A stretch of DNA of 64,000 nt from Candidatus Zixiibacteriota bacterium. Lineage in GTDB: Bacteria; RBG-13-66-14; B26-G2; WVWN01. This document shows positions 54,993-55,760 of the stretch, piece after piece. The notes below the pieces were generated by a model. It had not been told where the DNA came from and ran no database searches. It saw nothing but the letters and a program-made list of their open reading frames with translations. The stretch lies in the NCBI GenBank assembly GCA_030613505.1, contig JAUWLW010000003.1, forward strand, positions 41,387-105,386. Direction: 5' to 3'. The translations under genes and the position numbers were made by a program. Position 1 is the stretch's first letter, and the number at the start of each line of letters is the position of its first letter.

Positions 54993-55760
54993 TTATCGGA
55001 ACAACGTCTTGATGCGGCCTAACGACTGGGGTTCGACGCCGACGCCTCGGATATCGACTTTCCACAGACGACCGTTATCAGGCAAGGTGCTGAGCCACAA
55101 GTACCGGCCGTCGTACGTCGCCCCCCAAGGCTCGTCGGCCGGCGCCGGGAACGTCCCGACTACCGTACCCTTTACCGGCTCGAAGCCGACGATGCGATAG
55201 GTTTTCGAAACGTCGTCGTACTCGCCCGTCCAAAGATTTGATCCGTCATGGGCGAGGTCAAAGATTTCGTAGAAAGACGTGTACGACTTTATTACGCGGC
55301 CGTCGACGCGCATTTGGTAGTACCCGTGCGACCACTTCGTGCCGATTTCGGTTCCCCATAGATGGAAGCCGGACCACGCGAGGCCCTGGCCGAAGTTCCA
55401 GTTGACCTTAAACGAGGAGGCCACGCGGCCGCCCCACTCAAAACGGTAAATATAGTTGGTGGCGGTGTTGCCGGCCCAGAAGTATTTACCGTCGTGAGCC
55501 AGGCCGGCGGTATCGGCGCCGGTCTTCGCGAACCTGAAAGACCCGAGGACCGTGCCGCTACGCGGGCCTACCTTCCAAATGAGGTATGGCGACGTTTGGC
55601 AAAAACAATAAACGTTTCCGTCCGCCCACGTAAGCGCGATCGGTTTCGGCGCGGGAGAGGCGAAGGACGCTACTATCTCGCCGACGCGCGCCGAAGCGGA
55701 TACGCCGGTTAACGCCAACGACACCGCGGCCACCAATAATATACGTACAGCTAATTTCAT
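54993..55760 (-). CDS. Secreted beta-propeller-like repeat protein carrying the SLGRIKTLF C-terminal tag
   Basis: Signal peptide MKLAVRILLVAAVSLALTGVSASA. Repeated blades of the type GLAHDGKYFWAG / GLAWSGFHLWGT / DLAHDGSNLWTG / GATYDGRYLWLS, which are not NHL units. C-terminus VEPQSLGRIKTLFR. Confidence 0.6.
   Translation of the reverse strand: MKLAVRILLVAAVSLALTGVSASARVGEIVASFASPAPKPIALTWADGNVYCFCQTSPYLIWKVGPRSGTVLGSFRFAKTGADTAGLAHDGKYFWAGNTATNYIYRFEWGGRVASSFKVNWNFGQGLAWSGFHLWGTEIGTKWSHGYYQMRVDGRVIKSYTSFYEIFDLAHDGSNLWTGEYDDVSKTYRIVGFEPVKGTVVGTFPAPADEPWGATYDGRYLWLSTLPDNGRLWKVDIRGVGVEPQSLGRIKTLFR

Follow-up and report, generated by a model that had tools for sequence, protein, structure and literature searches.

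Why should exported proteins that are otherwise unrelated end in almost the same few residues? The question is raised by a stretch of 64,000 nucleotides (hereafter the window) on contig JAUWLW010000003.1 of a Candidatus Zixiibacteriota bacterium, an uncultured organism of marine sediment or cold seeps, in which four genes close with a common C-terminal tail, here called the tag. An initial annotation of this DNA proposed the tag as a candidate modular sorting or anchoring signal, a suggestion that the comparative evidence presented here supports. The architecture of the tag fits no known class, but when proteins and genomes are compared the tag behaves as a sorting signal does; from this evidence we infer a sorting function, and the tag most likely holds its carriers at the cell envelope. 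The explanation preferred here, at roughly an even chance of being right, is that the tag is a modular, linear C-terminal address tag of Sec-exported proteins that is read by one dedicated, shared partner.

Four window genes with a common tail

Translation of the open reading frames (ORFs) of the window shows four that terminate in SLGR[VI]K[AGT]LF[EKR] directly before the stop codon. These genes, and the parts of the fourth that matter below, are as follows.

22327-23295, plus strand: NHL propeller paralogue 1, 322 amino acids (aa), signal peptide; tail DIEPCSLGRVKALFE before the stop; tag and stop at 23248-23295
23392-24369, plus strand: NHL propeller paralogue 2, 325 aa, signal peptide; tail AVEPTSLGRVKGLFK before the stop; tag and stop at 24322-24369
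24467-25432, plus strand: NHL propeller paralogue 3, 321 aa, signal peptide; tail AVAPTSLGRVKALFK before the stop; tag and stop at 25385-25432
54993-55760, minus strand: tag-ended gene for an exported five-bladed beta-propeller, 255 aa; tail GVEPQSLGRIKTLFR before the stop
54993-55040, minus strand: extended tag G-V-E-P-Q-S-L-G-R-I-K-T-L-F-R with its TAA stop; predicted local distance difference test score (pLDDT) of the tail below 50, outside the fold
55689-55760, minus strand: predicted Sec signal peptide MKLAVRILLVAAVSLALTGVSASA, cleavage after an SASA motif, read by eye

The near-identity of the four tails is real. A six-frame scan admitting ORFs of any length returned exactly these four and no others, and the back-translated pattern TCNYTNGGNCGNRTNAARNNNYTNTTYNNNTRR matched the window four times against a mean of 0.00 in 100 dinucleotide-preserving shuffles. 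Synonymous codon choice differs among the four tags. All four carriers have an N-terminal Sec-type signal peptide when read by eye, in 4/4 the stop codon follows one residue after the aromatic [FY] position, and no hydrophobic stretch follows the motif in any of them. The three plus-strand proteins are NHL paralogues (Pfam NHL, E 1e-38 to 1e-46), the first and third, the only pair compared, being 55% identical. The minus-strand carrier had been described as unrelated to this trio, and this was borne out: its sole Pfam match is a sub-threshold one to DUF6923, not NHL, and a BLASTP alignment with an NHL paralogue is confined to the last 14 residues (E 0.003).

Structure prediction places the tag outside the folded part of its carriers. 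With an alignment of 27 sequences, AlphaFold2 modelled the 255-aa protein as a helix at residues 2-17, a low-confidence stretch, a five-bladed propeller at residues 28-236 (pLDDT above 90) and a tail at 241-255 with pLDDT below 50; the nearest solved folds are the glutaminyl cyclases 2iwa and 3nol (bacterial and plant enzymes; TM score 0.66, 14-15% identity). For the NHL paralogue at 24467-25432 a six-bladed propeller covers residues 20-304 (pLDDT above 93) and the tail, 307-321, again falls below 50, with a short low-confidence helix over GRVKAL in this one model. In the models of both families the propeller ends 5-17 residues upstream of the tag, which as modelled is a free, flexible tail outside the folded domains.

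Two versions of the tag across candidate phyla

A pattern scan of a database holding one genome per GTDB species found at least 141 matches to this Leu-type tag in at least 102 DNA stretches, where we estimate that chance would give about 35 in the whole collection. All but four of the matches listed come from nine metagenome-assembled genomes (MAGs), namely the complete 2.35-Mb CP070633.1 (labelled Candidatus Coatesbacteria), two labelled Zixiibacteriota and six unclassified; all nine contain orthologues of window genes, and six of the nine hold at least 13-22 tagged ORFs each. The stop codon comes one residue after [FY] in 137 of the 141 listed matches, at ORF ends or near-ends. With a median length of 284 aa the carriers are small; they form at least 13 sequence clusters and represent at least 12 unrelated non-NHL families. 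Besides NHL, the carrier families are PD40, the five-bladed propeller, Big_5 Ig-like domains, a plastocyanin-type cupredoxin, CBM96 and a CBM4_9-like module, and several have no Pfam match; the source annotation of the carriers is 'hypothetical protein'. Enrichment on proteins with signal peptides, which a sorting signal had been expected to show, was found: a crude rule picked out a signal-peptide-like N-terminus in 86 of 101 complete tagged ORFs compared with 174 of 436 untagged ORFs of the same loci (Fisher p 4e-17), and most of the 15 tagged failures are mis-called starts.

The conserved unit is longer than was first supposed. All 27 orthologues of the 255-aa propeller, at 53-100% identity, retain the tag, and down to 53% identity SLGRVKAL[FY]x is kept while the residues before it drift, which delimits a unit of about 15 residues. 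Thus the description of a short C-terminal tail stands and its length of about 10 aa does not, since with the V-x-P linker the window-type motif A-V-x-P-[AT]-S-L-G-R-V-K-A-L-F-[RK]-COOH comes to about 15 residues. The consensus of the Leu-type is [AP]-V-[EA]-P-x-[ST]-Phi-G-x-[VI]-K-x-L-[FY]-[RK]-COOH. Among 58 tails found via the propeller domain, V(-3), P(-1), S1, G3, V/I5 and K6 have an entropy of at most 0.5 bit; conservation alternates at -3, -1, 1, 3 and 5, with P, S, G and K kept by identity. In 79% of tags the last residue is a lone R or K, the others having E, Q, N, H, D or Y there, and a Pro-containing linker always stands between the preceding domain and the tag. In 112 tags from other genomes, the columns that the search pattern had left free (V-14, P-12 and A-4, counted in codons from the stop) are conserved at the first two codon positions and free at the third. 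Selection on the tag therefore acts at the protein level. The lipoprotein at 51604-52209 on the plus strand, put forward as a weaker look-alike, does not belong here: its tail MTLGQILARYHP has no Lys at position 6 and no hydrophobic residue at position 8 and carries two extra residues, and it has no orthologue among the loci analysed.

A profile hidden Markov model of the propeller alignment, run against 1.84 billion representative proteins, gave 6,129 homologues, and among the best 150 of these about 40 small proteins terminate in the tag or close variants such as SFGKVKALFR, SLGKVKAVFR, SYGKIKALYR, TWGAIKAMF and TWGEVKTSF. A scan for [ST]WGxIKxLYR-stop, expected by our estimate to match about 7 times by chance, found at least 130 matches in at least 120 loci; those listed lie in dozens of MAGs labelled Eisenbacteria, Krumholzibacteriota, Latescibacterota, Gemmatimonadota, Zixibacteria and Cloacimonadota, and most of them close ORFs of about 100-520 aa whose N-termini look signal-peptide-like by eye. 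The narrower pattern WGNIKxLYR-stop was scanned to completion over 185,579 species and hit 35 times. MAGs of the same groups and of Fibrobacteraceae account for 34 of the hits, and one, about the chance level, is in a cyanobacterium. That complete scan returned zero hits in Bacteroidota and, within these groups, none in a cultured isolate.

The extended Trp-type motif, (Cys at -8 to -12)-P-[TVS]-[PA]-V-E-x-x-[TS]-W-G-x-I-K-x-L-Y-R, aligns with A-V-[EA]-P-x-S-L-G-R-V-K-A-L-F-R of the Leu-type, its Pro lying three residues further upstream. An NHL protein of the Coatesbacteria genome (locus L175) ends in APASWGLIKALYR, a hybrid of the two. Because the motifs line up and a hybrid exists, the Leu- and Trp-types are treated here as one tag family, and owing to the Trp-type sister in several other candidate phyla the tag is far more widespread than the four proteins in which it was noticed. 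The window carries the Leu/Phe version and several other candidate phyla the Trp/Tyr version. Among tags not forced by the search patterns, position 2 is L, V, F, I or M in 48/48 tags of Leu-type MAGs and W in 14/14 tags of Trp-type MAGs. Such lineage coherence across dozens of unrelated genes would be predicted from co-evolution with a single reader. Eisenbacteria and Coatesbacteria are placed near the FCB (Fibrobacteres-Chlorobi-Bacteroidetes) group; in the NCBI taxonomy both are simply 'Bacteria candidate phyla'.

A candidate sorting signal, its relatives and its rivals

The position occupied by the tag is filled by other signals on related proteins. Remote homologues of the propeller carry there a type IX secretion system (T9SS) C-terminal domain (CTD) (P0055, P0145, P0149, P0168, P0177 and P0178), a PEP-CTERM signal (P0125), or, in others, C-terminal transmembrane (TM) anchors or dockerins. 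At 151-3970 on the plus strand of locus L182, three adjacent CBM-like paralogues that are 29-35% identical end in CTD, tag and CTD respectively, the outer two being proteins of 532 and 471 aa with a T9SS CTD and the middle one a protein of 206 aa ending in TWGGIKQLYR. To judge from these arrangements the tag is interchangeable with known surface-sorting signals, a swap pattern that is expected of a sorting signal, and the kinds of anchor found on the homologues argue for a destination at the cell surface. A second short tail was seen on homologous propellers (P0156, P0164, P0180 and P0184), ...[AI]xPW[IL]PLLL[LFS][DE][DEN]-COOH, which is hydrophobic and then acidic with no basic cluster and fits no class known to us.

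Eight attributes of C-terminal sorting signals have been listed by Haft, the eighth being that homologues elsewhere carry a different sorting signal or none (bioRxiv 10.1101/2023.06.07.544157). The tag displays attributes 1, 2, 3, 6, 7 and 8 and lacks 4 (a TM segment) and 5 (an Arg cluster). Accordingly, it resembles the tripartite CTERM signals (LPXTG/sortase, PEP-CTERM/exosortase, PGF-CTERM/archaeosortase, GlyGly-CTERM/rhombosortase and MYXO-CTERM/myxosortase) in its extreme C-terminal position, its many copies per genome, its near-invariant signature residues, its occurrence on otherwise unrelated signal-peptide proteins and the presence of other sorting signals on homologues elsewhere. It differs, as had been remarked for the xxx-CTERM class, in having no TM segment after the motif, only 10 residues, three of them charged, following the linker, and it lacks the terminal cluster of 2-5 basic residues. 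With so few residues past the linker, an intramembrane sorting protease cannot act on the tag in the usual way.

Two further kinds of C-terminal signal share features with the tag. Encapsulin cargo-loading peptides are C-terminal tails of about 10 residues, such as ...SLGIGSLK, and share with the tag its size, position, flexible linker, S-L-G start and modularity across unrelated cargo. However, encapsulin cargo is cytoplasmic whereas the tagged proteins carry signal peptides, and for this reason an encapsulin or bacterial microcompartment targeting peptide was rejected; near tagged genes there is also no recurrent untagged neighbour family, in a survey that did not search specifically for an encapsulin shell gene. 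An analogy drawn earlier with the outer-membrane beta-signal is likewise not upheld. The two have an aromatic residue near the C-terminus and alternating hydrophobics in common, but the beta-signal sits on barrels and its last residue is aromatic, whereas the tag sits on soluble propellers, sandwiches and a cupredoxin, with the aromatic penultimate and usually Arg or Lys last.

The tag is apparently uncatalogued. No C-terminal model of Pfam or NCBIfam release 20 covers it, whether whole proteins or isolated tails of both versions are searched. The peptide strings were not found in the literature, subscription-only papers lying outside the search, nor did papers under Zixibacteria, Coatesbacteria and Eisenbacteria hold anything relevant. 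A tail-only profile search of a 5.8-billion-protein set gave only 25 candidates, all short fragments, and no census.

In the mechanism proposed here, the N-terminal signal peptide would carry the protein across the inner membrane, as its sequence suggests. The small beta-rich domain would then fold and, as in the AlphaFold2 models, leave the tail of about 15 residues free and flexible. One putative lineage-wide envelope component, a receptor or anchor or else a processing enzyme, would bind this tail as a short linear motif, whereby the protein is either kept at or passed on to the outer membrane or cell surface. The tag would thus stand in for the T9SS CTD, PEP-CTERM, TM anchor or dockerin of homologous domains elsewhere, with a different and much smaller architecture.

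Several observations weigh against this mechanism. No cognate gene has emerged: when about 1,500 ORFs around tagged genes were clustered, no enriched untagged neighbour was common to both types, and the window is without an obvious sorting enzyme. Some carriers, the cupredoxin and the PD40 propeller among them, come from families whose members are typically periplasmic, so the destination could be periplasmic. Furthermore, 12-15% of the DNA matches are orphan copies of the tag without a usable ORF, which implies that some DNA-level process also acts on the tag sequence.

A bolder proposal, for which the chances are somewhat below even, is that the tag defines a previously unrecognised diderm sorting pathway with its own machinery, serving dozens of exported proteins per genome in parallel to type IX secretion. 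Such a pathway would span the clade labelled Coatesbacteria/Zixibacteria, Eisenbacteria, Krumholzibacteria, Latescibacteria, part of Gemmatimonadota and Fibrobacteraceae, and in some genes a leaky stop before the tag may yield tagged and untagged isoforms. In several phyla that have no cultured member among the hits, a sizeable share of the exported proteome bears the tag, which offers a way into the study of how their cell surfaces are built and a simple means of annotating thousands of 'hypothetical proteins'. More than once a C-terminal sorting signal has led to its reader, as with sortases, exosortases, archaeosortases, rhombosortases, myxosortases and the T9SS, and the tag provides a concrete profile for phylogenetic profiling towards a partner. 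If it works by the mechanism proposed above, the tag would be a very small portable module, possibly useful in surface display.

The strongest rival dispenses with a partner. Here the tag would be a self-sufficient anchor, a cationic and partly hydrophobic decapeptide that binds anionic membrane or lipopolysaccharide directly, with no receptor or enzyme. The C-terminal amphipathic helices of E. coli PBP5/6 and the MinD membrane-targeting sequence bind membrane in this way, and ten-residue cationic peptides can bind bilayers, as MinD and short antimicrobial peptides illustrate. Like those tails, the tag is short, cationic and partly hydrophobic without a TM helix; it has 2-3 basic residues together with 4-5 that are hydrophobic or aromatic, Trp/Tyr occurring in the sister version. 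Its free, flexible state, the low-confidence helix on GRVKAL and the failure to find a cognate gene around tagged genes also agree with direct binding. Nevertheless we consider it unlikely. The helical hydrophobic moment of SLGRVKALFR is an ordinary 0.45, equalled or exceeded by 44% of same-composition shuffles; across tags the moment at 100 degrees is 0.34-0.55, no higher than in 16-55% of such shuffles, and the periodicity of the entropy along the tag peaks ambiguously at both 130 and 180 degrees. An amphipathic helix, convincing on a wheel drawn by hand, was therefore dropped as evidence, and in this the tag appears to depart from the amphipathic PBP5/MinD-type anchors. Those anchors also conserve character within one family, whereas the tag is an identical motif on dozens of unrelated proteins. 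Its P, S, G and Lys are conserved by identity rather than character, in the alternation of an extended bound peptide, which together with the ordinary moment favours a partner over plain membrane binding, and lipid binding does not predict a lineage-coherent switch between the Leu- and Trp-types.

Dedicated reading by a partner must also be set against the possibility that the T9SS itself is the reader, the tag being a minimal signal or adaptor recognised by T9SS components or by a surface anchor attached to them. We regard this as quite unlikely. The tag and the T9SS CTD (type A, PF18962 / TIGR04183; FlgD_ig-like) are both C-terminal, modular and borne by Sec-exported proteins, both finish basic-hydrophobic-basic, and they swap on paralogous domains. 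Canonical CTD proteins (PF18962/PF13860) occur in the same MAGs as the tag and often in the same loci, and among the hits listed, bar a few that are stray or possibly mis-binned, the tag is confined to candidate phyla that are relatives of the Fibrobacterota/Gemmatimonadota group. However, the tag is an unfolded 15-mer where the CTD folds into an Ig-like domain of about 80 residues, a difference in length by which the initial annotation had already set the two apart; the CTD cargo of these loci is mostly large (about 350-1330 aa), well above the tagged median. CTDs from the same MAGs do match PF18962 and PF13860, while tagged proteins have neither an Ig-like domain nor a CTD match in Pfam or NCBIfam, and profile-profile comparison (hhalign) of tag tails with CTDs of the same MAGs gave a probability of 0.4%, which also disposes of the tag as a vestigial last strand of the CTD. 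Bacteroidota are absent from the roughly 250 hit loci listed, one complete scan included. CTD-bearing cargo was counted in at least three Leu-type MAGs and 27 of 120 listed Trp-type loci; about one CTD gene per four loci is roughly chance adjacency.

Highly unlikely, in our estimate, is a role in maturation or turnover rather than location, with the tag as a C-terminal pro-peptide or degron offered to a tail-specific protease (Ctp/Prc-type, PDZ-containing) or another periplasmic protease. C-terminal extensions removed by Ctp/Prc have precedents, as a linear motif at a free C-terminal end the tag conserves an aromatic near the carboxylate, and its small residues (P-x-S-x-G) resemble a cleavage region. 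Yet such a handle would leave unexplained why surface anchors stand at the same place on homologues. Nor is it obvious what purpose a degron would serve on several dozen unrelated binding modules per genome, and the final position varies among R, K, E, Q, N and H.

The data largely exclude the two remaining explanations. That the tag is a by-product of repetitive or mobile DNA landing at the 3' ends of genes, with no function as protein, has only the slightest probability. Near-identical orphan tag DNA does lie between genes in different MAGs, sometimes by conserved GC hairpins, and REP-like (repetitive extragenic palindromic) sequences follow a few tagged genes; but codon positions 1-2 are conserved with the third variable, the four window tags differ in their codons, the motif is in frame at the ORF ends of signal-peptide proteins, downstream DNA is shared after at most 6 of about 130 tags, and the window has no extra copies. 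One can dismiss with near certainty the idea that the tag is the final strand of some larger domain common to its carriers, as the initial annotation had allowed for, the 'velcro' strand that closes a beta-propeller being one example. All four window carriers are propellers with a beta-strand directly before the tag, but the propellers are complete without their low-pLDDT tails, the same tail follows cupredoxin, Ig-like, CBM and Pfam-less families, and the Pro-containing linker always intervenes.

Tag copies in other genomes and the window neighbourhood

The orphan copies are intergenic tag-coding DNA with no start codon, and the examples are L028 4246-4278(-) and 6336-6368(-), L046 4226-4258(-) and 3214-3246(-), L087 4155-4187(-), L079 3111-3143(-), L026 786-818(+) and L012 2873-2905(+). 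Several lie about 100 nt past a tagged NHL gene, directly before the ribosome-binding site of the next gene, and a HicA-like ORF precedes one of them. Copies from different MAGs are near-identical in DNA, and in L028, L046 and L087 a common GC hairpin (GGAGGCCGGC..GCCGGGGCTCC) stands upstream. They could have been left behind when genes were replaced at the tag, could have arisen by gene conversion, or could be an RNA or DNA element.

In two orthologous NHL genes with 73% DNA identity, L017 4213-4245(-) and L089 1940-1972(+), ...QYFK[RK]RD is followed by TAG and then by in-frame AVAPASLGRVKALFR and a stop; only synonymous changes, at 4 sites, separate the 45 tag nucleotides of the two. This arrangement may come from programmed readthrough of the stop codon, by which both tagged and untagged isoforms would be made, or from gene conversion that homogenised the tags. 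An in-frame TGA occurs in the CxxU-like context C-P-G-TGA-G-G-G in three orthologous tagged proteins (L012, TGA 2067-2069 and tag 2253-2285(+); L018, tag 330-362(-); L020, tag 3931-3963(-)), which appear right-handed beta-helix-like from their sequence. A check for covariation in a selenocysteine insertion sequence found a hairpin of 5-6 bp 13-14 nt downstream of the TGA, not in one register. These may be exported selenoproteins. Scans of the window revealed no orphan tag, no TAG before a tag and no such in-frame TGA.

A REP-like palindrome, ACAAGGGGCTTAAGCCCCTTGT, follows genes in four different MAGs and a second palindrome (GGGCCGGCCTTCGCGTCGG...) is found in others, the loci with palindromes downstream of tagged genes being L017, L053, L060, L079, L103 and L105. 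Since palindromes follow so few tags, they are not part of the tag, and a mobile module of tag plus terminator was rejected on this ground and on the codon statistics, which indicate protein-level selection.

No partner emerged among the neighbours of tagged genes. Antisense ORFs of NHL genes make up the largest 'untagged' cluster in the Leu-type loci, and in the Trp-type loci the largest comprises proteins whose common feature is a T9SS CTD. Synteny was judged to account for a TPR protein that lacks a signal peptide, seen at 6 loci, and for an M3-like peptidase, seen at 4 syntenic loci. Besides housekeeping genes, the window itself has those usual for a diderm envelope (Lnt, a LolCDE-like ABC system and a TolC-like OEP with MacAB-like partners). 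Among RNA runs, none was found to contain the locus. The NHL triple is flanked as follows.

20900-22257, plus strand: two paralogous membrane-protein genes, the second matching DUF6064, upstream of the triple
25713-28203, plus strand: a 171-aa ORF, then a LolCDE/MacB-like ABC pair (FtsX/MacB_PCD and ATPase), downstream of the triple

The membrane-protein pair is also present beside orthologous NHL genes in L015 and L082, and its place next to NHL genes is local synteny only. Elsewhere in the window, a gene for a 373-aa Kelch-repeat propeller at 48977-50098(+) lies between gatC (about 48660-48974) and an amidase/gatA-like gene (50106-51536), an unusual insertion. Finally, the genes at 40831-45477(+), encoding a 1,097-aa STAND/AAA_16 NTPase that bears a zinc ribbon and TPR repeats, followed by Roadblock/LC7 and Arf/MglA-like small GTPase proteins, are an MglA/MglB-type polarity module.

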